A stretch of 63,254 nucleotides of DNA, counting the filler. It is 5 parts of 5 records of this genome, joined end to end, with 100 filler letters (N's around TTAATTAATTAA, not from the genome) between each part and the next. Parts side by side here need not be neighbours in the genome. Positions count along the whole stretch, not along the records: positions 45,349 to 57,730 come from SRR31156797_828; 4 more parts are not named here. The stretch is one strand, 5' to 3'. Both the position numbers and the translations under genes were made by a program. Of the stretch, positions 19,388-57,830 are shown in pieces (the stretch's first letter is position 1; the number at the start of each line of letters is the position of its first letter). The notes beneath the pieces are model-generated. The model worked only from the letters and a program-made list of their open reading frames with translations, was not told the DNA's origin and did no database searches.

Positions 19388-19487
19388 NNNNNNNNNNNNN
19401 NNNNNNNNNNNNNNNNNNNNNNNNNNNNNNNTTAATTAATTAANNNNNNNNNNNNNNNNNNNNNNNNNNNNNNNNNNNNNNNNNNNN
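19388..19487. other. Artificial contig spacer
   Basis: N-run containing TTAATTAATTAA. Confidence 0.98.
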
Positions 19488-26347: not shown

Positions 26348-26447
26348 NNNNNNNNNNNNNNNNNNNNNNNNNNNNNNNNNNNNNNNNNNNNTTAATTAAT
26401 TAANNNNNNNNNNNNNNNNNNNNNNNNNNNNNNNNNNNNNNNNNNNN
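26348..26447. other. Artificial contig spacer
   Basis: N-run containing TTAATTAATTAA. Confidence 0.98.
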
Positions 26448-45248: not shown

Positions 45249-45348
45249 NNNNNNNNNNNNNNNNNNNNNNNNNNNNNNNNNNNNNNNNNNNNTTAATTAA
45301 TTAANNNNNNNNNNNNNNNNNNNNNNNNNNNNNNNNNNNNNNNNNNNN
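45249..45348. other. Artificial contig spacer
   Basis: N-run containing TTAATTAATTAA. Confidence 0.98.
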
Positions 45349-45791
45349 TTTATAGAGATTTCTTTTGCCTCATCATTTACAACAATACTACTTGTCTCTT
45401 CTTGATTTTTAGAAACAATTAGTTCATCTCTTCTTTTTAAAAGTGATTTTATTTTAAGTGATAACTCTTTTGCAGAAAAAGGTTTTGCTATATAATCATC
45501 AATTCCGTAGTTATAACCTTTTGTTTTAAAATCCTCTGTATCTAAAGCACTTATCATAATAATAAGTGTTTTTTTAGACTGATTTCTTATTGAGTTACAA
45601 AGGGTAAAACCATCTACATGTGGAAGCATAATATCTAAGGTAACAAGGTCATACTCTTTTGCTTTTATAAACTCTAAAGCACTTTTGCCATCTAGGGCAA
45701 TATCCACATTATAAACTTTAGAATCAAGTCTATTTTTTATAAAGTGTACAATAGATTCTTCATCTTCTATTATCAATATATTTTTTTTCAT
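45349..45791 (-). CDS. OmpR-family response regulator, 3' truncated
   Basis: ILIIEDE, LDIMLPHVDG, ISA, DDYIAKPF..EL..KIKSLLKR. Confidence 0.88.
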
Positions 45792-45958
45792 TTAATACTC
45801 AATTTTTATTTAACTATAGTGTACTTCTCGTGATTATACAATTGTATTGTTAAGAAAGTATGAAGATTTTATCTTGACAATTTCTTAATAATTTCTTCAT
45901 AAAATCTCAATAGTCTTAAAATAAAATGCACACATATAAAAGTACTAAAGGATATGTA

Positions 45959-47275
45959 ATGAAAGAAAAAAAAGAAATAGGGCTTCATGAAGCTTATCAT
46001 AATGATCCAGTAAAAAGTGATTTAGATATATTTGGGAGAGAAAGCGATGAGTCAAGAAGAGGTTTCTTAAAAAAATCTTCTATTTTAGCAATGGCTGCAA
46101 TGGTTGGTTCAAATATACCTTTTGGTTCAAATATGCCATCTGGTCTTATTCCTGCTGCATTAGCTGATTCAACTGAACCTTTTAAAATAGAAGGAAAAGA
46201 TGGATTAGTTTATCTAAATGATAGACCTGTAAATGCAGAAACACCGCCACATTTATTAAATGATGAATTTACACCTGGAAAACATTTTTTCATTAGAAAT
46301 AATGGTGTTCCTCCAAAGAAAACAGAAAATCCAGATGAGTGGACTTTAGAAATTGCAGGAGAAAGCTGTGAAAAACCTACAACATTTACACTAAAAGAGT
46401 TAAAAGAGAAGTTTAAACACTATACTTATGCTTTACAATTAGAGTGTGGTGGAAATGGTAGAAAAGAAGTTAATCCTCCAGCAAAAGGAAATCAATGGAC
46501 AACTGGTGCAATAGGTTGTGGTAGATGGACTGGTGTTAGATTAAGAGATGTTCTTGAGTATTGTGGTATTAAAAAAGATGCTGTTTATATTGGATATTAT
46601 GGAAGAGATACTCACTTAAGTGGTGACCCAACAAAAGAGGTTATCTCAAGAGGTGCTCCAATGGAAAAAGCCTTAGAAGATGAGTCTTTAATTGCTTGGG
46701 CATATGAAGGTGAAGATATTCCTTTATATAATGGTTATCCTTTAAGATTAGTAGTTGGTGGATGGCCTGCATCTGTATCTGGAAAATGGCTTAAAAAGAT
46801 TGTTATTAGAGATAGAATTCATGATGGTAAGAAAATGAATGGACAATCTTATAGAGTACCTAAAAATCCAGTTGCTCCTGGAACAAAAGTAGCCGATGAA
46901 GATATGGAAATTATTGAATCAATGCCTGTTAAGTCATTGATTACTTTCCCTAAATCAGGTGTAAGACATGAGTTAAATAAGAAGTTTAAATTTAATGGAA
47001 AAGCTTGGGCAGGTGATTTAGAAGTAACACAAATGGAAGTTTCAATTGACTTTGGAGCAACATGGAAAAAAGTTAAGAAGTTAAATAAACCACTAAACAG
47101 ACTTGCTTGGCAATCATGGGAAGCATCAGTTAAGTTCCCTAAAACTGGTTATTATGAAGTTTGGGCAAGAGCTATGGACTCAAATGGTGTTAAACAACCA
47201 ATGATTTTACCAGGTTGGAACCCAAGAGGTTATTTAAATAATGCTTGCCATAGAATAGCTGTATTAGTAGTGTAA
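45959..47275 (+). CDS. sorA: Tat-exported sulfite oxidase-family molybdoenzyme (SorA-like)
   Basis: SRRGFLK Tat motif, NAETP, FFIRN, LECGGNGR (Mo-ligating Cys), NGYPLRLVVGGW..S.KWL. Confidence 0.8.
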   Translation: MKEKKEIGLHEAYHNDPVKSDLDIFGRESDESRRGFLKKSSILAMAAMVGSNIPFGSNMPSGLIPAALADSTEPFKIEGKDGLVYLNDRPVNAETPPHLLNDEFTPGKHFFIRNNGVPPKKTENPDEWTLEIAGESCEKPTTFTLKELKEKFKHYTYALQLECGGNGRKEVNPPAKGNQWTTGAIGCGRWTGVRLRDVLEYCGIKKDAVYIGYYGRDTHLSGDPTKEVISRGAPMEKALEDESLIAWAYEGEDIPLYNGYPLRLVVGGWPASVSGKWLKKIVIRDRIHDGKKMNGQSYRVPKNPVAPGTKVADEDMEIIESMPVKSLITFPKSGVRHELNKKFKFNGKAWAGDLEVTQMEVSIDFGATWKKVKKLNKPLNRLAWQSWEASVKFPKTGYYEVWARAMDSNGVKQPMILPGWNPRGYLNNACHRIAVLVV

Positions 47276-47285
47276 GGAGTTTTAA

Positions 47286-47633
47286 ATGAAATTATTCAAA
47301 AAAACTTTTGTAGCCCTAGGGCTACTTACACTTCTTTCTTCTTTTTCTTTTGCAGCTGAAAAGCAATATGATAAAGAGACAGGACTTATTATTGATTCTG
47401 GAATGGAAGTGGTAAGAGCAAACTGTACAGTTTGTCATAGTGCTAAGTTTATTACTTTACAAAGAGGTGATAGACAAACTTGGCTTGATATGATTAGATG
47501 GATGCAAGATTCTCAAGGGTTATGGCAGTTTGATGCACAAACTGAAAAGACTATTTTAGACTATTTAGAGAAAAACTATGCTCCTGATAAGGCTTCAAGA
47601 AGACAAAATCTAAGTAAAGACCTATTACCATAA
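47286..47633 (+). CDS. Monoheme cytochrome c subunit (SorB-like)
   Basis: Signal peptide, CTVCH, W..MIRWMQ; follows sorA. Confidence 0.8.
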   Translation: MKLFKKTFVALGLLTLLSSFSFAAEKQYDKETGLIIDSGMEVVRANCTVCHSAKFITLQRGDRQTWLDMIRWMQDSQGLWQFDAQTEKTILDYLEKNYAPDKASRRQNLSKDLLP

Positions 47634-47640
47634 ATCAATT

Positions 47641-47662
47641 ATTAGGGAAAATCTTCCCTAAT
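47641..47662 (+). terminator. Hairpin after sorB
   Basis: ATTAGGGAA-aatc-TTCCCTAAT. Confidence 0.5.
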
Positions 47663-47709
47663 AGCAATCTGGTACAATAAAAACTTCTAAAAATAGTATA
47701 TAATTGCAT

Positions 47710-48540
47710 ATGGCAAAAAATCAAGACACTGCTTTTCAAACTAAAATTTGGAAACCAAAGTTTAGTGATGACATTACTTTTCATAAGGCTTATTTTTTAA
47801 ACTACGGTTTTGATAAGCATGTTCACGAAGACTATACTATTGGACTAATCCAAAATGGACATATGGATGCATTTGTAGATGGTGAAAAAAAGAGCTTAGA
47901 TAGTTCTACTATTGTTAGTGTAAACCCTGATGAAACCCATGCTTGTCAAACTTTCTACCATAAAGATTATACTCTTTATTCAATCTATTTAAAACCAAAT
48001 TTATTTAAAGAGCTTGTAAATGAAAACTTTCATACAAGTGAACTATATTTTAAAGAAGGTGCTTATTTTGATAAAGAGCTTTCAAGTAGATTTTTAAAGA
48101 TATTAAACTTTAGTGAAAATCAATATCTTTCTAACTTAGATTTTGAGTGTGAGCTTTTAGACTCTGTAAAAAGTCTAGTTTCAAAAAATGTAAAATATAG
48201 TATTGACAAAAATATCTCAAATCATCAATCAATGATAAAAAAAGCAAAAGAGTTTATGAGTGAAAACTACCATTTAGATTTAAATTTAGATGATATCTCA
48301 GATGCTTTAGATGTATCAAAATACCATTTTCTAAGAACTTTCAAGGACAAAACTTTCCTTTCTCCCCATAATTACCTAATGCTAAAAAGAATAGAAAAAG
48401 CAAAAGAGTTACTTCAAAAAGGTGAAAGCCTTACAAATACTGCTCATATTTGTGGCTTCAATGACCAAAGCCATTTAAATAGAAGATTTAAATCTATTAT
48501 GGGCTTAACTCCTGGGGAATACAAAAAGTTTTTTAATTAG
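47710..48540 (+). CDS. AraC-family transcriptional regulator
   Basis: Cupin FDKHVHEDY; C-terminal HTH pair SKYHFLRTFK and GFNDQSHLNRRFK...TPG. Confidence 0.92.
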   Translation: MAKNQDTAFQTKIWKPKFSDDITFHKAYFLNYGFDKHVHEDYTIGLIQNGHMDAFVDGEKKSLDSSTIVSVNPDETHACQTFYHKDYTLYSIYLKPNLFKELVNENFHTSELYFKEGAYFDKELSSRFLKILNFSENQYLSNLDFECELLDSVKSLVSKNVKYSIDKNISNHQSMIKKAKEFMSENYHLDLNLDDISDALDVSKYHFLRTFKDKTFLSPHNYLMLKRIEKAKELLQKGESLTNTAHICGFNDQSHLNRRFKSIMGLTPGEYKKFFN

Positions 48541-48586
48541 CAATTTCATACAAGACAATAATTTCTTTCTTTGATACTATTCTTTT

Positions 48587-49270
48587 ATGGATAAAAATTT
48601 TAGAAACGGATTTATAGCTAATCTTCCAATTGGAATTAGTGTTTTTGCTTACGGTGCAGTTTTAGGTGTACTTTGTGTTCAAAAAGATATTGAGTTTTAT
48701 CAACTAGCTTTGATGAATATCTTTATTTTTGCAGGTTCTTCTCAATTTGTAATTGTAGATATGTGGAATACAACTCTTGATATTATTGGAGTGACGATTG
48801 CAGCACTTCTTGTAAATCTTCGATATTTTTTAGTTACAGCTTCACTGAATACTCTTTTTGTAGGCACAAGCAAAACTCAAAAATTTAAATATATGCACTT
48901 TGTGACTGATGAGTGTTGGGCTATTACAATGCAAAGATTAAAACAAGAAAGTATTACTCCTATGTTTTTATTGGGTGGAGGAGTTTGTATTTTTTCAGTT
49001 TGGTTTGCGGGAACTTCACTTGGATATTTTTTAGGTGACTTTATTCAAAGTCCAGAAAAATATGGTTTAGACTTTGCTTTTATTGCAATCTTTTTAGCTC
49101 TAGCTATTAGTATGTATAAAGGAAAAGAAAATATTATTCCTTGGCTTATAACTATTGTAAGTGCTTTTGCTTTTGAGCAGTTAATAGATGGAAAAATATA
49201 TATAGTTTTAGCAGCTATTTTAGGTGCTTTTTCAGCTGTTGTTTTTTCAAAGGATGAAAGATATGGATAG
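48587..49270 (+). CDS. azlC: AzlC-family amino acid exporter permease
   Basis: FAGSSQF, LVNLRY, TDECWA, GLDFAF. Confidence 0.88.
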   Translation: MDKNFRNGFIANLPIGISVFAYGAVLGVLCVQKDIEFYQLALMNIFIFAGSSQFVIVDMWNTTLDIIGVTIAALLVNLRYFLVTASLNTLFVGTSKTQKFKYMHFVTDECWAITMQRLKQESITPMFLLGGGVCIFSVWFAGTSLGYFLGDFIQSPEKYGLDFAFIAIFLALAISMYKGKENIIPWLITIVSAFAFEQLIDGKIYIVLAAILGAFSAVVFSKDERYG

Positions 49271-49571
49271 TTTTACATTTAGTGCCTTAGCTATAATATT
49301 TTTAGTTGCATTGGGAACTTATAGTTTAAGGGTTTCTGGAATTCTTCTTTCAAGTAAGTTATCAAAAAACAAAAAGATAGAACTATTTTTAGACTATCTT
49401 CCTTCTACTTTACTTTTAGCCTTGGTTTTTCCAAGTATCATAAAAGAAGGAGTTGCTGGAGTAATTGCAAGTTTACTTATTGTTTTGATTATGTATAGAA
49501 CAAATAATGTTCTTCTTTCTATGTGTGTTTCTATTTTATTTATAGCTCTTTTTAGAAACTATATGACATAA
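49263..49571 (+). CDS. azlD: AzlD-family membrane protein
   Basis: TYSLR..G, FLDYLP..LL.ALV.P; overlaps the azlC stop. Confidence 0.8.
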   Translation: MDSFTFSALAIIFLVALGTYSLRVSGILLSSKLSKNKKIELFLDYLPSTLLLALVFPSIIKEGVAGVIASLLIVLIMYRTNNVLLSMCVSILFIALFRNYMT

Positions 49572-49581
49572 GCCTTTTGGC

Positions 49582-50529
49582 TTATGCTTTGATTTTTTTG
49601 TATGCTTCGCCTAAACTTTTAGAGGCTTTTAGAAGTAGAACTTTTTCTTCTTTATTTAAAGAGACATTTAGTCTATATTCTACACCTTTACTTCCAATTG
49701 TACAAGGAAGACTAAGAACTGTTCCTTTTTCTAGGTTGTACTCTTTATTTGCTTTTACTGATACAGAGAATATCTTCTTTTCATCTCGAATAACACTTTG
49801 AATAAGTTTTGCAACTGCAACTGCAACTCCAAAGTTTGTATATCCTTTTCTTTGGATAATCTCATAGGCTCTATTTTTTACTATTTGCATAGTATTCTTT
49901 TTTAGTTGCTCTAATTTTAATCCCTTTGGAAGAGGGAAGTTTTTTAGTTTGATTGAACCAATTATAGCATTTGACCAAACAGCAAACTCACTATCTCCAT
50001 GTTCACCTATAACATGAACATGAACATTTTTTCTATTTACATTTAACTCTTTTCCAACTTGAAATCTTAATCTTGAAGTATCTAAAAGTGTCCCTGAACC
50101 AAAAATCTTGTTAGCATCTCTTTTACTTGCTTCTTGCGCTACTCTTGTAAGAATATCAACAGGGTTTGATACCATAATTAAAACAGCATTTGGCACGTAT
50201 TTATCAAGGTTTTTAATTATATCTTTTATGATTTTTGCATTTCTATCAAGAAGTTCTAATCTTGTCTCACCTTCTTTTTGTCTAGCTCCTACTGTAATAG
50301 CTACAATGCTACACTCTGATAGGTCTTTATAATCATTTGTAGCTTTTACAGTCATCTCTGAAAGTAAAGGAATAGTGTCATCTATATCCATAGCTTCTGC
50401 TATTGCTTTGTCTTTGTCTCTATTGAAAAGAATAATCTCTTTTCCTACATTTCTAAGAACTAAAGCATTTACAATAGCTGCACCTACATTTCCTGCACCA
50501 ATTACACCTATTTTTGTAAGACTTGACAT
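49582..50529 (-). CDS. ldh: NAD-dependent L-lactate dehydrogenase
   Basis: GAGNVG, GARQKEGETRLEL, SNPVD, GTLLDTSR, GEHGDS. Confidence 0.9.
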   Translation of the reverse strand: MSSLTKIGVIGAGNVGAAIVNALVLRNVGKEIILFNRDKDKAIAEAMDIDDTIPLLSEMTVKATNDYKDLSECSIVAITVGARQKEGETRLELLDRNAKIIKDIIKNLDKYVPNAVLIMVSNPVDILTRVAQEASKRDANKIFGSGTLLDTSRLRFQVGKELNVNRKNVHVHVIGEHGDSEFAVWSNAIIGSIKLKNFPLPKGLKLEQLKKNTMQIVKNRAYEIIQRKGYTNFGVAVAVAKLIQSVIRDEKKIFSVSVKANKEYNLEKGTVLSLPCTIGSKGVEYRLNVSLNKEEKVLLLKASKSLGEAYKKIKA

Positions 50530-50584
50530 ATGAAAAACCTTTTGTTTTTTATTTGAATTGTAGCTAGATAATTTTAAGGAAAAG

Positions 50585-50704
50585 TTATTTTAGGAAGTCT
50601 ATTTTTCTTTCGTCTTTCCATCTTTTTTTATTTCTTCTTTTAAAAGAGGTGAAAGCACTTATTCCTATCAATAACGCTAGTAGATAATAAGCATAAGTCT
50701 CCAT
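50585..50704 (-). CDS. Small 39-aa single-TM protein (below the ORF-track cutoff)
   Basis: METYAYYLLALLIGISAFTSFKRRNKKRWKDERKIDFLK*; RBS AAGGA 5 nt upstream; same strand as both neighbours. Confidence 0.55.
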   Translation of the reverse strand: METYAYYLLALLIGISAFTSFKRRNKKRWKDERKIDFLK

Positions 50705-50767
50705 GATATCCTTTCATTTTATATTTTGAAAGTATATCAATGAAAACTTTGCTTACTTAAAAGTATT

Positions 50768-52003
50768 TCATTTTGCAATGTTTTTGTTTTTGTAAAAACT
50801 ATAAGCAAAATATGTCACTATAACCAACGTACCAATTACGATATAAATAAGTGAAATATCCCTTGCTGATGATAGGTTTATAACAGTTGCTAAATAAGTA
50901 GCTCCCATAGAAGAAAGCCCAAAGTTAAGTGCTGAAAATAGGCCTGATGCTGTTCCTGCATTTTCTTTAAAGTCTTCTAGTGCAAAAGCAGGGCAAGCAC
51001 TTACAAAAATAGTACAACCTACAGCGATAATAGCCATAGGTAAAACATATGTTTGCCAAATACCAAAAGATGAAAGAGCAAAGATTAATACTCCTCCAAA
51101 AGTATAAAATAAGATACCAATACTTACTGTGTTTTTTATTCCTATTTTTTCTACAACTAAAGGAACAGTAAAACTACCAATCATAAAAACAAAAGCTATA
51201 AGCATAAACATCCAACCAAAAGATACTTTTGATACACCTAAATAGCCAATCAAATATAAAGGTGCGATAGTTAAGAAGAACATAAATCCAAGAAAACCAA
51301 CAAGTGTAAGACTAAGATATAGTACAAAGTTTTTATTTGTCACTACACTTTTGTATGCTTCTATTGTTGACTGCTTCTCTAAGATATCATCTTTTTTGCT
51401 TTTTACTAAAGTCTCTGCTGTAAAAAGATAAGTCCATACAATACTACATAAACCAATAATAGAAAATAGAGTAAATACATATTGCCAAGAGTTTGTTTCT
51501 AAAATAAAAGCCCCAATAAGTGGTGCAGATACAGGGATAATTGCTAAAGAACCGTTTAGATAACTATAAGCTCGTCCAAGTTTTACTCCATCAAAGGTAT
51601 CTCTGATAATTGCAAATATTGCAGCAAAGCAAGCACTTCCTCCAAAGCTTTGTAAAGCTCTATAGGCTAAAAACTGAGTTGGGCTATCTTGAGTTATCTT
51701 TGATATTAAGTATGAAGCTATAGAAAAAACAACAAGTCCTATAAGAGCTACGTTTCTTCTTCCTATAATATCACTGATTCTTCCCCAGAACATCTGTCCT
51801 ATTCCCCAAAAAAGAAGGTAGATTGAAATAGCAAACTTAGCAACACTGTTATCACCTAGAAAAAAAGATTGAATGTCATTTAGTGCAGGTAAAAAAAGAT
51901 CAATTCCCATTGGAAGTAGGGTAAATAATGGTAAAGCTAAAAAAAGAGTCATAAAAATAGATTCACTGCTTTTGTGTCTCAAAACTGTATGTATATGTTT
52001 CAT
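50768..52003 (-). CDS. MFS transporter, Bcr/CflA (DHA1) family
   Basis: GIDLFLPAL, G..SD..GRR, RALQSFGG, IIRD, APLIG. Start reassigned to ATG 52003 after an AAGGA RBS. Confidence 0.9.
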   Translation of the reverse strand: MKHIHTVLRHKSSESIFMTLFLALPLFTLLPMGIDLFLPALNDIQSFFLGDNSVAKFAISIYLLFWGIGQMFWGRISDIIGRRNVALIGLVVFSIASYLISKITQDSPTQFLAYRALQSFGGSACFAAIFAIIRDTFDGVKLGRAYSYLNGSLAIIPVSAPLIGAFILETNSWQYVFTLFSIIGLCSIVWTYLFTAETLVKSKKDDILEKQSTIEAYKSVVTNKNFVLYLSLTLVGFLGFMFFLTIAPLYLIGYLGVSKVSFGWMFMLIAFVFMIGSFTVPLVVEKIGIKNTVSIGILFYTFGGVLIFALSSFGIWQTYVLPMAIIAVGCTIFVSACPAFALEDFKENAGTASGLFSALNFGLSSMGATYLATVINLSSARDISLIYIVIGTLVIVTYFAYSFYKNKNIAK

Positions 52004-52735
52004 AAAAAATCCTTGTAAGAGATATATAAAGTATGGAAGTGGAAAATAAAAAAGTGTACTCAATAAAAAACTAGTAGGAGATATATAATGAGAGTACACT
52101 TTTTTTATAGAGAGGGAAAAAATGAATTAAATTGTTAGCACAATCTCTATGGGCAGAACTTTAACAATATCTAACTTAAAAAACCATTACAGTAATAAAG
52201 TAAAGTAAGGACATAAAATATATATAGGGTAGTATAATATACTAATAAATGTTACATTTATAATTAAATTTCTAAATTTAAACAAACTTTAATATAAAAT
52301 ATTACATCTGTGACAGGGATGTGACAAAAAAATATTATAATCTTTGCATAAAAATATTGATGAAATTTTGTTGTGATTTCCATGGGAAAGCACTAAAAAA
52401 AAGAGTTCCATTACAGATAAAGCTTTAAACCTTAATGTTATGAGATGGGTGGTTTGAATTTAAATTTGGATGTAATTATATAAATTAGAAAGGGCAAGAA
52501 TGTAGTCAGTAGAAAAAGTTAATATATTAATCTGGTGAAATAGAACTAAACATTACTTTTAATGAAAAATAATATTTAATATTTAGTTGTTTAATATACT
52601 TAAATATGTTGAGGTATCTATAATCTAGATGAATTAGACAAAAATTACACTTTACCATTTTAGGGTAAGTTTCAAACATGATAAAAAAAGAATTAATTAA
52701 TAAAAATATTATAATATAACTTATAAGGATTTATC

Positions 52736-54892
52736 TTGGAAAATAAACAAGACATTATTAAGCTTTATGAAAAGTATGGTTTTAAATTTCTTGAAAACTC
52801 TTCAAATAGCGAATTTTTAGCATTTACATATAAAACTGGTTTTTTTCATAATGCTGAGATTATATCATTAAGCTATAAAGATAGAGAAGACATTTCTGAA
52901 GAAATGGAAAAAAAGTCAAATGGCCTAAAAAAACTAGGATATTCAACAAAAATATCATTTTATAAGTCAATAGAAGAAATAGAAGGGAGATTATTCGAAG
53001 GTTTTTTTACTACTAAAAGTTGGAAAAAAAGAATATTAAAAGAGTATACAGACTATACAGAAAAAATTATGACTAATCTTCCTAAGGATAAGTATAACTA
53101 TGAATATATAGAATCACCTTTTTTAAAAAATAAAATTAAAAAAGAAGATACAACAATAATTAATGAGATTTTTAAAGATATTCAAAAAGTCTCTCCTCAA
53201 CTAATTATAATTGAAGCACCTGCAGGTTTTGGTAAAACATCGACATCCTATGAAATTTTAAAAGAATTAGTTCATGATGAAAATATGCCAATGCCTTTCT
53301 TTACAGAGTTCTCTAGAGATAGACAAGCTAGAGTATTTAATCATATTTTAATGAGAGAAGTTGATAAATCTTTTCATAACATAAAATCAAATGTAGTTAT
53401 AGAGGAAATTAAATCAGGAAAAATTTTAATTTTGTTAGATGGATTCGATGAACTTCTTCATGACGATAGCACTGATGGTGATAAAGTGAGTGCATTTGAA
53501 AAAAATGAGCCTATGTTAGAAACAATTAGTGAACTACTAACTAATAAATCTAAAGTTATTCTAACTACTAGGAAATCAGCAATTTTTGATGGTGAATTAT
53601 TTGCTGATTGGATAAATAAATATGAAGACGAGTTTACAATTAATAGATATCAAATTGAAAAACCTGAAGTTAGACACTGGTTAGAAGATACTAGATATAA
53701 ACAATTAGGAAAAATATTTGATGATATGAATTTTATTTTGAATCCTGTTTTATTAAGTTTTTTACGTTTTTCAAATAATCAAACTTTTGATGAGTTATTA
53801 AATAATCCTTTAGAGATAGTAGAAAAATATTTTTCAGTAATGCTAGAAAGAGAAATGAGTAGACAAAATTTACCTATGAAAATAGAACAACAGAATAAAT
53901 TCCTAGAAATAGTTGCACAAGATATGTGTGATAATAATTATACATCAGATTCAAAAGAAAAAATCATTAATTTAATTAAGATTAAAGCTATTGATTTATT
54001 AAATGATGTCAGAGATAATTATCCTCCTAAAGATAGACCAACAATAGACAAGCTTTCTACAACTTTATCAAACCATGCTTTTTTTGATAGAAGTCAGCAG
54101 GGGGAAAACAATATTCAATTTATTAATGAATTTGTTTTTGGTAATTATATATCAAGAAATATAATTAATTCAGAGAATGAGTGGGTTTCAAGTGATGAAA
54201 GGTTTGTTGAACCAGCAGTCCTTTCTTATATAAGTAGAGAAAAAGAGAAAAAACTTTTACTTTGGGAAAAACTTAATTTTATGAAAGAGTTCTTATCTAA
54301 ATCTTCTCAAATGAAATATGAATCACTTTTAACTGATTGTGTTACAGAGGAAATTTATGATAATTCTGAAATTAAAAATATTTCTTTTAAAAATATAGAT
54401 TTTTTTAAGGAATCTACTATAACAAATAGTATTTTTATAGATTGTGAATTCATTGATATTAACTTTAATATGAAAATGTTTAATGATGTAACTTTTTCAA
54501 GCTGTAAACTTTGGAATTGTACAGTATCTAATATAAATGAGAATAAAGATAATATTATTTTTTATAATTGTGTAGATAATAATGAACTAATTGTTCAACT
54601 TGAAGATATAACTGATGATGATATATCAATTGAAGATAATAGTCAATCTATTAGTATTTATATATTTGAAGAGTTATGGCCAAAAGGGAGTGAAAAACTT
54701 GATAAACTATATTATTTTATTCCTGATTTATTAAGTAATTGTGAATTTACAAAAAAAGAGATATTGAAAGAAATAAATAAACTAAAAAGACAAGGATTAT
54801 TGCTAGACGGAAAGCATTCTAACTTTATTATGATAAATAAAAGTAAATTAAAGGATATAAAAAAGATTTTAGGAAGAGATTCAGATGTTTAA
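52736..54892 (+). CDS. NACHT/STAND-like P-loop NTPase with C-terminal pentapeptide-like repeats and a possible wHTH
   Basis: Walker A APAGFGKT (about aa 161), Walker B ILLDGFDE (about aa 233), sensor VILTTR, NPVLL, WHD-like QFINEFVFGNY; TTG start with AAGGA RBS. Confidence 0.8.
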   Translation: MENKQDIIKLYEKYGFKFLENSSNSEFLAFTYKTGFFHNAEIISLSYKDREDISEEMEKKSNGLKKLGYSTKISFYKSIEEIEGRLFEGFFTTKSWKKRILKEYTDYTEKIMTNLPKDKYNYEYIESPFLKNKIKKEDTTIINEIFKDIQKVSPQLIIIEAPAGFGKTSTSYEILKELVHDENMPMPFFTEFSRDRQARVFNHILMREVDKSFHNIKSNVVIEEIKSGKILILLDGFDELLHDDSTDGDKVSAFEKNEPMLETISELLTNKSKVILTTRKSAIFDGELFADWINKYEDEFTINRYQIEKPEVRHWLEDTRYKQLGKIFDDMNFILNPVLLSFLRFSNNQTFDELLNNPLEIVEKYFSVMLEREMSRQNLPMKIEQQNKFLEIVAQDMCDNNYTSDSKEKIINLIKIKAIDLLNDVRDNYPPKDRPTIDKLSTTLSNHAFFDRSQQGENNIQFINEFVFGNYISRNIINSENEWVSSDERFVEPAVLSYISREKEKKLLLWEKLNFMKEFLSKSSQMKYESLLTDCVTEEIYDNSEIKNISFKNIDFFKESTITNSIFIDCEFIDINFNMKMFNDVTFSSCKLWNCTVSNINENKDNIIFYNCVDNNELIVQLEDITDDDISIEDNSQSISIYIFEELWPKGSEKLDKLYYFIPDLLSNCEFTKKEILKEINKLKRQGLLLDGKHSNFIMINKSKLKDIKKILGRDSDV

Positions 54893-55739
54893 TAATAATA
54901 ATCTTATAAAAAATGAGATAGAAGACAAGATAAAAAATGCACTTGATAACGTAGGGATTATGTATAGAGTGTTTTCTAGAATAAAAGAAAATTCGTCTTT
55001 AGAAAAAAAACTTGATAATGAGCCAAATTATGGTATATCAAAAAAATTACAAGATTATATTGGTATCAGAATAGTTCTATATTTTAATGATGACATTAAA
55101 AATGTTAGAGACATAATATCTTCTTTATATGAAGAATCATCAAAAGATACAAGCATTGATGAATTCTCGAAAGAAGAATTTAAAGCAGTAAGATATAATA
55201 TTATTTATAGATTAGAAAATCCTTTAAATATAGAGAAAGACAGGGATAAGATTGATGATACTTTTGAGTTACAAATAAGAACAATTTTTTCAGAAGGTTG
55301 GCACGAGGTCGAGCATGATTTAAGATATAAATGTAAAAGTAATTGGAACTCTTATGACTATGAAAGTAGACTACTGAATGGTGTATATGCATCACTCGAG
55401 ACAAATGAATGGACAATGTTACAAATATTTGATAATCTTTCTTACCAGCATTACAGAAAAAGAGAGTGGAGTGCGATGATTAAACAAAAATTTAGATTGA
55501 GGTTCCAAGAGAAAGATTTAGACTCAGATATAATTAAACTATTTAATGATGAAAATATATCAAAAAAATTTTTTAGACTAGAACGTTCTAAGGTACTAAA
55601 AAAAATGCATGAAAAATCATTTTCTTACCCATTAACATTAGATAATTTTATTTATTTTACTAATTTAGAAAAAGTCAAAAATGAAAAAATCAAGGAAATT
55701 ACTCCTTTTGAAATGATTAATTGGTTTTATAAATCTTAA
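54885..55739 (+). CDS. RelA/SpoT-domain small alarmone synthetase-like nucleotidyltransferase
   Basis: SRIKENSSLEKK, QDYIGIR, FELQIRT..SEGWHEVEHDLRYK; no hydrolase, TGS or ACT domains; overlaps the NTPase by 8 nt. Confidence 0.85.
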   Translation: MFNNNNLIKNEIEDKIKNALDNVGIMYRVFSRIKENSSLEKKLDNEPNYGISKKLQDYIGIRIVLYFNDDIKNVRDIISSLYEESSKDTSIDEFSKEEFKAVRYNIIYRLENPLNIEKDRDKIDDTFELQIRTIFSEGWHEVEHDLRYKCKSNWNSYDYESRLLNGVYASLETNEWTMLQIFDNLSYQHYRKREWSAMIKQKFRLRFQEKDLDSDIIKLFNDENISKKFFRLERSKVLKKMHEKSFSYPLTLDNFIYFTNLEKVKNEKIKEITPFEMINWFYKS

Positions 55740-55769
55740 AACAAATGAAATTCTATACATAAAATATAA

Positions 55770-55899
55770 TATGAATTTATAAATGGCATTCAATACCCCA
55801 AAGCACTTTGGCTTAAAAAATACAAGCCAAGTGTTTTAAACATCAGCAGATGAGCAAGTCCAAGCTATATTTGAAACAGCTAATATAGTAGGGGATTTA
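55770..55899 (+). pseudogene. Frameshifted N-terminal remnant of a DUF2779-like nuclease gene
   Basis: FINGIQYPKALWLKKYKPSVL, then a +1 shift to TSADEQVQAIFETANIVGDL. Resembles the DUF2779 N-terminus (G.QCPK.LWL.K...FE.G..VG.LA) as I recall it. No start codon. Confidence 0.6.
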
Positions 55900-55994
55900 A
55901 TCAAAAGTGTACAAAGTAGAAGCCAAACTATGAATAGTTTCTCAAATCTTTCTAAGCTAAGAGAGGAAGTAAAGAGAAGATGAGAACTTCTCTT

Positions 55995-56321
55995 TTATAT
56001 ATTCAAGCTTTCAACTTTTTCTAAAGAACTTGTATCAATCTTTTCTAAAACTTTATCTATAGATTCTACCTTATCATCTAAAAACTCTATAAAACTTTTG
56101 TAGTGCTCTTTTTGTTTATGTTTTTCAAGAGACTCTCCACTATCCCACTCTTCTATAAAATAAAATTTGTTTTCATCCTCTTTATCTTTGTAAAGGTCAT
56201 ATTGAACAAAACCTTCATCAAAATCATGGGTAAGTTTATGCATCGCTTGCATAAATGGATAAACTATTTGTGTAAACTCTTCTTTAACTTTTATTTTTAC
56301 TGTAAATACTATATTGCTCAT
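55995..56321 (-). CDS. Antibiotic biosynthesis monooxygenase (ABM) family protein
   Basis: EGFVQYDLY.D......FYFIEEWDS..SLEKH....HY. Confidence 0.85.
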   Translation of the reverse strand: MSNIVFTVKIKVKEEFTQIVYPFMQAMHKLTHDFDEGFVQYDLYKDKEDENKFYFIEEWDSGESLEKHKQKEHYKSFIEFLDDKVESIDKVLEKIDTSSLEKVESLNI

Positions 56322-56483
56322 AAATAACCTTTGAAATTAAAATAATTTTAGCATTATACATTTGAAATTTTAAACTTAGATTTTTAGATTATATTAATAC
56401 AGTCGTCTTTTACTATAGTGCAAATATTAATCACTAGGATTTTAGAAAAACTTTAATATAATCCTAAAAATTAATTACATAGG

Positions 56484-56849
56484 ATGATTATGAATAAAGT
56501 AGTTCTAAAACTAAAAAGCCCAAAAAAATTTAGCTTATATTGCCCATTTACAAATGAAAAACTATATAACGAAGATAGTTCATTTGAAATTTATGAAGGT
56601 GCAGGAAACTATCTTTTTTCGATATGTGAAGATTGCCTTTTCTTCGATGCAGGAAATAATGAAGAAATCGAAAGATATTGGAACAATTCTGCTCTTGAAG
56701 CCATTGAAAAGTTTGTAGAAAACCATAAAGAAGAGAATATCTTAGTTATTGAAGTTCAAGATGATGAAGATACTTATTGGTATGGTTTTTTAAATGAAGA
56801 TAATATCGAATTAACAGCTCAAGAACTAGAAAAGAAATTTATTAAATAG
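56484..56849 (+). CDS. Hypothetical acidic protein (YCPF and CEDC motifs)
   Basis: Intact 121-aa ORF with AGGA RBS, co-oriented with the exonuclease. Confidence 0.65.
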   Translation: MIMNKVVLKLKSPKKFSLYCPFTNEKLYNEDSSFEIYEGAGNYLFSICEDCLFFDAGNNEEIERYWNNSALEAIEKFVENHKEENILVIEVQDDEDTYWYGFLNEDNIELTAQELEKKFIK

Positions 56850-56872
56850 ATAAAAGTTGATATAATCCCACC

Positions 56873-57397
56873 ATGATTATATTAGATTTTGAAACAAATA
56901 CAATGAACCCTCAAGATGTTATTGAGGCTGCTGCTGTTAAGTTAGAATTTATAGATGGAGACTTTAAAGTTATTGATAAGTTCCATAGATATTATCTTTC
57001 ACGATATCCAGTGAATCCTTACTCTTATGAGGTTCATAGACTTACCCCTGAGAAAATTATTGCCCATAGAAATGGTGCTAGTTATAGCTCTTTTTTCAAT
57101 GAAGATGAAGAGTTTATTGACTTTTGTTCTAGTGCAAATACTTTGATTGCTCACAATATAAACTTCGAGCTTAGACATCTTGATAAGCTTGTAAGTTTTG
57201 AAAAACACTTCTGTACTATGAAAGAGAATAAACATATAGTAAAAGCACTAAACAAAAATGGAAATATCAAAAATCCAAAGCTAGATGAAACTTGCGTTTT
57301 TTATGGGATAGATTTTGACCCACTTTCATATCATAGTGCTACATATGATGTGAGTAAAACTTATGAGATATTAAAATGTATGGAAAAGACTTTTTAG
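56873..57397 (+). CDS. DEDDh 3'-5' exonuclease (DnaQ-like)
   Basis: ILDFET, AHNINFE, HSATYD. Confidence 0.88.
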   Translation: MIILDFETNTMNPQDVIEAAAVKLEFIDGDFKVIDKFHRYYLSRYPVNPYSYEVHRLTPEKIIAHRNGASYSSFFNEDEEFIDFCSSANTLIAHNINFELRHLDKLVSFEKHFCTMKENKHIVKALNKNGNIKNPKLDETCVFYGIDFDPLSYHSATYDVSKTYEILKCMEKTF

Positions 57398-57430
57398 TAG
57401 TTTAAAAAATAGATATTATTTAAGAGCATA

Positions 57431-57463
57431 AAAAAAGCTAGAAGTGAAAACTCCTAGCTTTTT
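57431..57463. terminator. Bidirectional intrinsic terminator
   Basis: AAAAAGCTAG-aagtgaaaactc-CTAGCTTTTT between convergent genes. Confidence 0.8.
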
Positions 57464-57492
57464 AAGTGATTTAATTTTAAACAGTTTGTTTA

Positions 57493-57729
57493 TCATCCAC
57501 CATACATTAAGTTTGGTAAGAATAAAGAGATTTGAGGGATATACGTAACAAGTATTAATCCTACAAAAATCGTTAATGTCCACGGGAACGCGGCGACAAT
57601 AACATCTTTGATACTCATACCGGTTAGACCTGAGGTTACAAACAGATTCAGACCAACAGGTGGGGATACCATTCCAAGCTCCATATTTACTGTAATAATG
57701 ATACCAAAGTGAATTGGGTCAATTCCAAG
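57493..57729 (-). CDS. dctM: TRAP transporter large permease DctM, C-terminal fragment
   Basis: LGIDPIHFGIIITVNMELGMVSPPVGLNLFV...YIPQISLFLP. Confidence 0.88.
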   Translation of the reverse strand, partial: LGIDPIHFGIIITVNMELGMVSPPVGLNLFVTSGLTGMSIKDVIVAAFPWTLTIFVGLILVTYIPQISLFLPNLMYGG

Positions 57730-57730
57730 T

Positions 57731-57830
57731 NNNNNNNNNNNNNNNNNNNNNNNNNNNNNNNNNNNNNNNNNNNNTTAATTAATTAANNNNNNNNNNNNNN
57801 NNNNNNNNNNNNNNNNNNNNNNNNNNNNNN
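57731..57830. other. Artificial contig spacer
   Basis: N-run containing TTAATTAATTAA. Confidence 0.98.

Follow-up and report, generated by a model that had tools for sequence, protein, structure and literature searches.

In this study we describe a pair of overlapping genes encoding an NLR-like NTPase of the NACHT/STAND type (gene 1) and a stand-alone RelA/SpoT-type small alarmone synthetase (SAS; gene 2), identified in a stretch of DNA of 63,254 nucleotides (referred to below as the window), which is composed of five joined parts of one genome. The two genes form a conserved, tightly coupled pair across phyla, and this pair is an accessory, horizontally mobile operon. Judging from the evidence presented below, we somewhat favour its interpretation as an NLR-like immune (conflict) operon whose synthetase acts in trans.

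The two co-oriented open reading frames (ORFs), of 718 and 284 aa, overlap by 8 nt, at the coordinates given by the first-pass annotation that drew attention to them, and all motifs quoted there for both genes were found in the translations (Table 1). Both are long ORFs in DNA of 24% GC and both have Pfam scores above the gathering thresholds; the pair is therefore not a product of chance.

Conservation of the gene pair

When one genome was scanned for each GTDB species, relatives of gene 2 came to light in 186 species, and the best 80 loci were fetched. The co-occurrence of homologues, proposed as a check in the first-pass annotation, was evident in both directions. A relative of gene 1 is placed directly upstream, on the same strand, in 55 of the 80 loci. 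Where at least 2300 nt of upstream sequence is available (73 loci), the partner is present in 53 cases and missing from the other 20; seven loci are too short on this side, and the partner is still visible in two of these. The genes of the 53 pairs, as delimited with a crude ORF caller, overlap in 20 cases, are separated by 0-25 nt in 28, by 26-60 nt in three, and lie further apart in two. The gap does not exceed 58 nt in 51 of the 53 measured pairs, and one of the two wider pairs holds an insertion sequence (IS). In the reverse test, a synthetase gene was found downstream in 9/9 places identified with gene-1 queries. All seven IMG/VR loci detected with the NACHT protein alignment have a synthetase downstream, as do both genomes carrying PF22723 (the N-terminal domain of gene 1) among the 400 scored, although one of the latter (G001, the search centre) is locus L009, already included among the 55 and thus not independent.

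The two proteins have also diverged together: their pairwise distances are correlated (r 0.86) and none of 999 permutations reached a value as high, shared descent contributing to this result. No third gene is conserved, since among the neighbours of the pair (two on each side of 40 loci; 150 of 163 ORFs scanned, the last 13 being left out) the commonest family, HTH_3, occurred only 5 times in 150. Prediction of a complex between residues 1-715 of the NACHT protein and the SAS gave a median score of 0.33 against a mark of 0.34, which counts neither for nor against binding. NACHT-SAS or other fusions were not found among longer proteins at E <= 0.001, a negative result of little weight.

The NACHT protein

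The product of gene 1 is composed, in this order, of an NA-iREase2 domain, a NACHT domain, a short beta-helix and a helical, winged-helix-like tail. Its relatives are numerous (1345 homologues at E <= 1e-3 among 8000 candidates scored). The N-terminal region of about 150 aa, considered unrecognisable in the first-pass annotation, proved to correspond to the Pfam domain NA-iREase2. The columns of this domain conserved in at least 70% of 47 aligned homologues are mostly aromatic, hydrophobic or glycine (Y11, Y14, F16, F37, L86, F87, F90, F91, Y104, Y122 and Y124). A D...(D/E)xK nuclease set is not conserved among the 47 homologues, and E41 is retained in only 37 of them. The domain is an inactive restriction-endonuclease fold, and we propose that it serves as a platform or adaptor for the synthetase.

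The central part contains Walker motifs of types A and B as well as VILTTR and NPVLL. Residues G166, K167, T168, D235, G236, F237, D238, E239, T277 and R279 are invariant in 47 gene-1 sequences. Forty of the 47 retain His447, a residue of the predicted winged-helix part that may, as judged by motif position only, be equivalent to H443 of NLRC4. The best Foldseek matches of the AlphaFold2 (AF2) model of this protein (mean pLDDT 86.7) were NLRP14, NLRC4, NOD2, NLRP3 and Avs4 (E 2e-10 to 6e-9). The NLR matches, NLRP7 included, have E 2e-10 to 9e-9 and a probability of 1.00, with TM-scores that are low (0.2-0.35), the matches being long multi-domain chains. Gene 1 thus encodes a genuine NACHT STAND NTPase, with an NBD-helical-winged-helix fold of the NLR kind.

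Divergence is greatest in the C-terminal third of the protein (mean distance 0.75). This third includes F/C-rich repeats at about residues 555-595, where a weak, below-cut-off match to Pentapeptide_4 was detected (residues 561-599, E 0.0015), together with weak matches to Qnr and HalA. DSSP analysis of the model shows a run of short strands between residues 545 and 610. F572 and C590 are invariant, and F567, C570, F587 and F592 are nearly so. The following elements were assigned by DSSP to the remaining tail: H618-627, H630-647, H662-667, H673-685, E689-691, E697-700 and H702-712. By its modelled secondary structure only, this tail may be described as winged-helix-like. Residues 520-718 gave look-alikes in the ESM Atlas only at chance-range scores (0.75-0.80).

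The likeness to HalA, the effector of the Hailong system, extends over residues 523-612 (54300-54571) and is sub-threshold (NCBIfam NF051894, E 6e-7, 29 bits vs a cut-off of 250); the same region matches PDB entry 9nyi with E 0.98. It is probably a generic pentapeptide-repeat likeness. It does have a bearing on a reversed order of events, in which the SAS makes a nucleotide, constitutively or upon infection, and the NACHT protein is both receptor and effector: the NTPase pocket or the iREase domain would bind the nucleotide, and the protein would act through a DNA-mimic-like pentapeptide helix or the winged-helix tail, with a Hailong-like inhibitory signal as one version. Such a scheme, which we consider highly improbable, would agree with the fact that inactive enzyme folds often bind ligands, with the lack of a recognisable catalytic effector in the NACHT protein, and with the similarity to HalA, which, as stated in a review, is gated by the nucleotide product of its partner. 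However, the HalA match falls well short of its cut-off and lies in a generic beta-helix, known NACHT/STAND systems sense with C-terminal repeats and execute with the N-terminal domain or a partner, and execution is unlikely to be the task of a protein that has neither an enzyme domain nor a pore domain. Moreover, there are clades of partner-less SASs (see below), which use the enzyme without this receptor.

The synthetase

RelA_SpoT (PF04607; 61.1 bits vs a cut-off of 27) is the sole Pfam domain of gene 2, whose homologues number 2483 in the protein collection. There is neither an HD hydrolase domain nor any of the regulatory domains of long RSH proteins, which bears out the description of the protein as a synthetase without hydrolase. 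The motifs QDYIG and ELQIRT are present, as are the catalytic patterns RxKxxxSxxxK, QDxxGxR and ExQxRT. R32, K34, S38, K42, D57, G60, R62, E128, Q130, R132 and T133 are invariant in 50 SAS sequences as well as in all partner-less members of the family.

In structure comparisons the model of gene 2 (pLDDT 92.9) is closest to RelQ and RelP (scores 15.4-15.8, with 167-169 residues aligned), followed by Rel (14.2), Tas1 (10.9), CapRel (9.9) and FaRel2 (6.3); these comparisons span only about residues 1-190. Foldseek and a profile search of the PDB likewise favoured RelQ/RelP, and the best sequence matches are again RelQ (SAS1/YjbM) and RelP (SAS2/YwaC), with E values from 1.6e-9 to 8e-6 and about 20% identity.

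The catalytic part of the SAS is acidic (pI 4.96; family median 5.37), while its conserved C-terminal 95 residues are basic. According to Kurata et al. (2021 preprint), FaRel2, which modifies tRNA, employs a basic patch, and RelP is strongly negative on the corresponding surface. The acidic catalytic part therefore tilts our guess, weakly, towards a nucleotide product, (p)ppGpp or (pp)pApp, rather than modified tRNA. Jimmy et al. (2020) describe a conserved tyrosine of the G-loop that binds the acceptor nucleotide. At the position where alignment with the RelQ/YjbM profile puts this tyrosine, next to a 2-residue gap, the SAS family has an invariant phenylalanine (F99; 55179-55181), and the nearby position of Y104 may hold Y, L, I, V or F. 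If the alignment is correct, phenylalanine in this position leaves room for an unusual acceptor, and the product may not be (p)ppGpp.

The C-terminal domain of the SAS (residues 186-284) yielded ESM Atlas look-alikes only at chance-range scores (0.75-0.80). A shared adaptor domain, as in EAD-type coupling, was considered and rejected: none was detected between the two proteins by hhalign, in which the SAS C-terminal domain reached probabilities of 0.2-0.7% against the whole NACHT protein alignment, its N- and C-terminal parts, and the catalytic part of the SAS.

Natural knock-outs of the NACHT gene

Several loci may be regarded as natural knock-outs of gene 1. A DDE transposase interrupts the NACHT gene of L001 (2419-4107), and an rve-type IS that of L003 (4490-5485). 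In L008 (3801-5986) the gene is frameshifted, and in the Yersinia plasmid L082 (6607-9001) it has lost residues 1-148 at an IS1 element. In each case the ORF and motifs of the SAS are intact. Such a combination was thus observed in 3 of 55 genome loci and in one of the three plasmids opened.

These loci are informative with respect to a toxin-antitoxin (TA)-like arrangement, in which the SAS would be a constitutively toxic enzyme of the toxSAS kind and the NACHT protein its antitoxin, until infection releases the SAS. The overlapping bicistronic layout resembles toxSAS TA operons, conserved two-gene SAS operons are held by Jimmy et al. (2020) to indicate toxicity, and CapRel, Tas1 and FaRel2 are detectable structural relatives of the SAS. 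However, persistence of an intact SAS beside IS-disrupted, frameshifted or cut NACHT genes, as well as in 24 loci with no partner at all, disfavours constitutive toxicity that an antitoxin would restrain. Furthermore, the partner is a 718-aa NTPase and not a small antitoxin, it comes first in the gene order, and the fold of the SAS is nearer to that of the non-toxic RelQ/RelP. We therefore consider this arrangement improbable, and the option raised in the first-pass annotation that the NTPase "releases" the SAS loses ground with it. The SAS appears to be quiescent on its own, and the pattern of intact and broken genes suggests that the NACHT protein is an activator rather than an antitoxin of the synthetase.

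Distribution and mobile context

The NACHT-linked form was found in 1 of 121 species genomes in the genus of L009 and in 2 of 121 in that of L008. It is thus sporadic within these genera and not a core component of them. The family has members in Vibrio, Aeromonas, Pectobacterium and Pantoea, on Klebsiella plasmids, and in gut Firmicutes and Bacteroidota. In a tree of 78 SAS sequences (L050, L017 and L032, absent or shorter than 240 aa, were left out) the window protein falls inside a clade of 18 (support 98), all of them NACHT-linked. The tree is discordant with taxonomy: the Acholeplasma and 'Turicibacter' sequences are placed among Gammaproteobacteria, and a Saprospiraceae sequence beside Acinetobacter. 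Only three changes are needed to explain the presence or absence of the partner on this tree.

A near-full-length match to gene 2 (at least 80% of the query) was obtained in eight plasmid records, and the NACHT gene is upstream in all three plasmid loci that were opened. In a conjugative IncF plasmid of Klebsiella the pair lies between XerD and PifC, in a Yersinia plasmid it adjoins a reverse transcriptase, IS1 and an N6-methylase, and in a Pantoea megaplasmid it adjoins an integrase. In prophage-like contigs the pair is accompanied by, among others, integrases, ParB, Zot, pIV and Sak4, and its neighbours in genomes include type I restriction-modification S (3) and R (3) subunits, ResIII (4), integrases (3), AbiEii-like AAA_21 (3), HNH (2) and a type III methylase. 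Among phage records only two distant SAS genes of mycobacteriophages were matched. The Klebsiella plasmid copy had no distant blastn match in complete E. coli genomes, in a search made at the DNA level only.

Two further observations concern individual loci. In the Klebsiella IncF plasmid (L081, 3615-10595) the XerD-like recombinase is on one side of the pair, and PifC with a 457-aa ORF on the other. This ORF, whose identity is unconfirmed, is possibly PifA, the T7-exclusion gene of the F plasmid, in which case the region would be a plasmid defence cluster. The pairs of L015 (a metagenome-assembled genome assigned to 'Turicibacter') and L071 (one assigned to 'Aeromonas') are near-identical (branch lengths 0.0017 and 0.01), and the two genomes share an isolate-name prefix; the likeness could reflect a binning error or a very recent transfer.

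Synthetases without a NACHT partner

Twenty partner-less loci group into three strongly supported clades, of Bacteroidales, Tannerellaceae and Oscillospiraceae. All catalytic motifs are kept in 24 partner-less SAS genes (L020, L028, L035, L038-L041, L046, L049, L051, L052, L058, L059, L061-L064, L067, L069, L074-L076, L078 and L080). Their neighbours are housekeeping genes. This form was present in 5 of 101 species genomes in the genus of L074. The Oscillospiraceae clade looks like a stand-alone enzyme that is vertically inherited. These clades constitute a natural comparison for studies on the control of the enzyme.

In the Oscillospiraceae clade a conserved protein of about 165-210 aa, 62-70% identical between loci and carrying NGCGWIA and NH motifs, is encoded directly upstream of the SAS (5390-5938 in L038, with equivalents in L035, L039-L041, L046, L049, L051, L059 and L062). 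The copies from L038 and L049 had no Pfam match at E <= 0.001. This protein might be a cysteine-peptidase-like partner, or its position might reflect synteny alone.

Proposed mechanism and its weighing

In immune proteins of the STAND/NACHT kind (see Kibby et al., preprint), sensing is the task of the C-terminal repeats and oligomerisation that of the NTPase, and the domain at the N-terminus executes or recruits. In the present operon this last domain is a dead nuclease fold, and the SAS is the sole enzyme; we therefore propose that the oligomerised iREase platform serves to recruit or activate the SAS. The NACHT protein would sense a cue derived from an invader through its C-terminal region, which would lead to nucleotide exchange and oligomerisation. 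The clustered N-terminal iREase domains would then recruit or activate the SAS, presumably by physical contact and perhaps via its basic C-terminal domain, and the activated enzyme would make an alarmone-type nucleotide, (p)ppGpp or (pp)pApp. This nucleotide would arrest growth or signal downstream, resulting in abortive infection or dormancy, and the role of the operon would be directed against phages.

Several observations weigh against an immune function. Neither protein matches any model of PADLOC-DB 2.0.0, a library that dates from 2023, the Avs and NLR models included: gene 1 produced only Cas3-like P-loop noise (E 0.0015 and 0.05) and gene 2 nothing at E <= 1. The nearest relatives of the synthetase are non-toxic housekeeping SASs. 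The partner-less form is present in 13 of 21 species of the Oscillospiraceae genus of L049, and no relative of gene 1 was found anywhere in the four partner-less genomes checked; the existence of the partner-less clades indicates that the SAS family is not intrinsically tied to immunity. Many neighbours of the pair in other genomes are housekeeping or metabolic genes and, the neighbour counts having no matched background, enrichment in defence genes is not demonstrated and we make no claim of it. Finally, the other genes on the 12.4-kb contig of the window are ordinary, and this contig has no integrase, tRNA or convincing flanking repeat.

Part of this evidence would fit a stress-regulatory module, in which the NACHT protein is a MalT-/AfsR-like STAND switch that tunes the SAS to a metabolic or envelope cue, possibly binding DNA through its winged-helix-like tail. 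Besides the absence of PADLOC matches and the proximity of the SAS to housekeeping RelQ/RelP in both fold and sequence, its acidic, RelP-like catalytic part, the apparently vertical inheritance of partner-less clades amid housekeeping genes, and the metabolic or transport genes next to the pair in the window would all be expected of such a module. However, the NACHT-linked form is very sporadic (1/121, 2/121 and 2/400 genomes), is carried by plasmids and prophage-like contigs, has been knocked out repeatedly by IS elements, and has a phylogeny discordant with taxonomy. These are traits of conflict systems and not of core regulators, which makes a stress-regulatory module rather unlikely in our opinion, and we retain the NLR-like immune operon as the preferred explanation.

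A more far-reaching proposal, which we put forward only tentatively since it is possible but doubtful, is that of a widespread immune axis, in which a NACHT sensor with an inactive-nuclease platform switches on a separate RelQ/RelP-like SAS with an alarmone-type output. It would be the split-gene counterpart of fungal RelA_SpoT-NACHT proteins and the first bacterial NACHT system with a free-standing enzyme recruited in trans. If the operon works in the way outlined above, it would show how an NLR-type switch turns on, in trans, an enzyme that makes a diffusible nucleotide. It would also assign a function to NA-iREase2, a domain that is catalogued but uncharacterised, and would link stringent-response chemistry to bacterial innate-immune sensing, in parallel to the fungal RelA_SpoT NLRs. 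The size of the family (186 GTDB species representatives with synthetase relatives) makes it a practical experimental target.

Local genomic context

The window is an artificial concatenation, whose contigs are joined by N44-TTAATTAATTAA-N44 linkers at 19388-19487, 26348-26447, 45249-45348 and 57731-57830. Anything that spans these linkers (GC shifts, cut genes, apparent synteny) is not biological, and the real context of the pair is therefore limited to positions 45349-57730, i.e. to the 12.4-kb contig (SRR31156797_828). Accordingly, the right-hand jump of GC to 0.38 is a product of the contig junction, and a 63-aa C-terminal piece of DctM (57493-57684) is cut by the contig end.

The pair had been described as lying in a visibly AT-rich block, with a gene-free left flank of about 700 bp, between ordinary MFS and ABM genes. 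Both neighbours are as described. The block is indeed AT-rich, though only modestly so (GC 0.219 for the flank, 0.243 for gene 1 and 0.249 for gene 2, vs 0.304 for the left part of this contig), and the flank, which indeed contains no ORF of at least 60 aa, measures 636 bp. This flank had no Rfam match at E <= 1, and promoter-like hexamers are not commoner in it than in shuffled sequences. The hairpin downstream of gene 2 is the sole terminator-like site within 52000-56500 and is weak, shuffled sequences giving a mean of 0.7 such sites. The rest of the contig comprises ordinary genes: a response regulator, a sulfite-oxidase-like Mo-oxidoreductase, AraC, AzlC, LDH/MDH, MFS, ABM, a 121-aa protein without assignment and a DEDDh exonuclease. 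Flanking direct repeats suggestive of an attachment site were not found; the repeats detected are short, imperfect and AT-rich.

Table 1. Features of the NACHT-SAS gene pair and its immediate surroundings (positions in the window)
Feature	Position	Strand	Remarks
MFS gene	50768-52099	-	left neighbour, confirmed
Gene-free upstream region, AT-rich	52100..52735	.	636 bp, GC 0.219; presumed to hold the promoter
Gene 1, NLR-like STAND NTPase	52736..54892	+	718 aa; TTG start, Shine-Dalgarno-like AAGGA 7-8 nt upstream
NA-iREase2 domain, residues 7-131	52754..53128	+	PF22723, E 7.4e-33, 113.9 bits vs cut-off 27
NACHT P-loop core, residues 156-283	53201..53584	+	PF05729, 33.4 bits vs cut-off 26.7
Walker A APAGFGKT, residues 161-168	53216-53239	+	motif present
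Walker B LLDGFDE, residues 233-239	53432-53452	+	motif present
Short pentapeptide-type beta-helix, residues ~540-612	54353..54571	+	F/C ladder; candidate sensor surface
C-terminal helices with a small helix-strand-strand-helix tail, residues 618-718	54587..54889	+	DSSP of AF2 model
Overlap of gene-1 stop and gene-2 start, ATGTTTAA	54885..54892	+	8 nt
Gene 2, stand-alone RelA/SpoT-type synthetase (SAS)	54885..55739	+	284 aa, ATG start
Gene 2 catalytic domain, about residues 1-190	54885-55454	+	
Gene 2 conserved basic helical C-terminal domain, residues 191-284	55455-55736	+	
Terminator-like hairpin	55971..55995	+	between gene 2 and ABM gene; possible operon end
ABM gene	55995-56321	-	right neighbour, confirmed; convergent with gene 2

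Just downstream of the pair, and co-oriented with it, two further genes (56484-57397) encode the 121-aa protein, which has no family match, and the DEDDh/RNase_T exonuclease of 174 aa, which matches the PADLOC model of a CRISPR-associated DEDDh protein (E 1e-22). RNase_T occurs at most once among the 150 scanned neighbours of the pair elsewhere, as all families found in two or more neighbours were listed; the 121-aa protein belongs to no family, so a listing by family cannot reveal its recurrence.

Comparison of the window (45400-57700) with contigs of run X5, obtained from another sample, showed that the pair is near-identical in both (9 differences per 2135 letters and 3 per 1326) and that the flanking genes differ by about 2% (42/2049, 15/768 and 13/619). 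This is a possible hint at a more recent exchange of the pair than of the DNA around it. Runs X17 and X18 provided only scraps of 40-120 letters, uninformative on presence or absence of the pair in sister strains. Joints found in these comparisons were disregarded, as they had short sides (21-28 letters) at 80% likeness.

Comparison with known systems

The first-pass annotation did not recognise the pairing as a named system, which agrees with the PADLOC results. The idea of combining NACHT with an alarmone synthetase is, however, already in print as comparative genomics: in Kaur et al. (2020) for related ternary systems, in Dyrka et al. (2014) for fungal fusions, and in the Supplementary Discussion of Kibby et al. 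(10.1101/2022.07.19.500537), which lists 'alarmone synthetases' among the enzymatic effector domains of bacterial NACHT proteins. Full-text literature searches returned no description or test of the two-gene form, although the clade or its neighbourhood may be listed in the supplementary tables of Kibby et al. (27 genes tested), Jimmy et al. (Datasets S1-S4) and a 2026 STAND survey. As far as these searches show, the idea exists as comparative genomics and the two-gene form has been neither named nor tested.

It is known that bacterial NACHT proteins (bNACHT) defend against phages, and the sensor types named for them include pentapeptide repeats (Kibby et al. preprint, 10.1101/2022.07.19.500537). 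In the same work bNACHT25 was hyperactivated by a substitution analogous to one at His447. Gene 1 resembles these proteins in its central NACHT domain, Walker A/B motifs, candidate winged-helix histidine, NLRC4/NOD2/NLRP3-like fold and candidate C-terminal repeat-type sensor, and the pair shares with them a sporadic, mobile distribution. It differs in that the enzyme is encoded by a separate, overlapping gene instead of being a fused N-terminal domain, the N-terminal position being taken by an inactive restriction-endonuclease fold, and in that no PADLOC NLR model is matched. Avs/AVAST systems follow the same three-part logic, with an effector, a STAND NTPase and a sensor at the C-terminus, and Avs4 is among the fold matches of gene 1; unlike them, gene 1 is a member of the NACHT clade, lacks both a fused effector (nuclease, SIR2 or protease) and a TPR-like sensor, and matches no PADLOC Avs model.

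With the toxSAS enzymes (FaRel, FaRel2, PhRel, PhRel2 and CapRel) the SAS shares the hydrolase-less synthetase, the conserved overlapping two-gene operon, the location on mobile DNA and a possible role as a growth-arrest effector in phage defence, RelA/SpoT toxins being known to arrest growth. The defining feature of toxSAS TA modules, a small cognate or fused antitoxin, is lacking: the conserved partner is the 718-aa NACHT protein, standing in place of a small antitoxin or fused pseudo-zinc-finger domain, and there is no other conserved neighbour. In addition, the SAS persists where its partner is broken and, unlike FaRel2, has an acidic catalytic part without the basic tRNA patch described for that enzyme. 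RelQ (SAS1/YjbM) and RelP (SAS2/YwaC) have the same catalytic motifs and an acidic catalytic domain, and are the best sequence and fold matches. In contrast to them, the SAS has an extra conserved, basic, helical C-terminal domain of about 95 aa, carries the invariant F99 at the aligned G-loop tyrosine, and is NACHT-linked and sporadic rather than core in most lineages.

A parallel to the proposed output may be found among fungal NLRs, for which Dyrka et al. (2014; PMC4986451) described RelA_SpoT-NACHT fusions, with an N-terminal RelA_SpoT effector domain, i.e. a NACHT switch with a RelA/SpoT synthetase as its presumed output. In the fungal proteins, as described there, the two are fused and combined with WD40, ANK or TPR sensors, whereas in the bacterial operon they are encoded by two genes, with a beta-helix as the candidate sensor and the iREase domain as the proposed adaptor.

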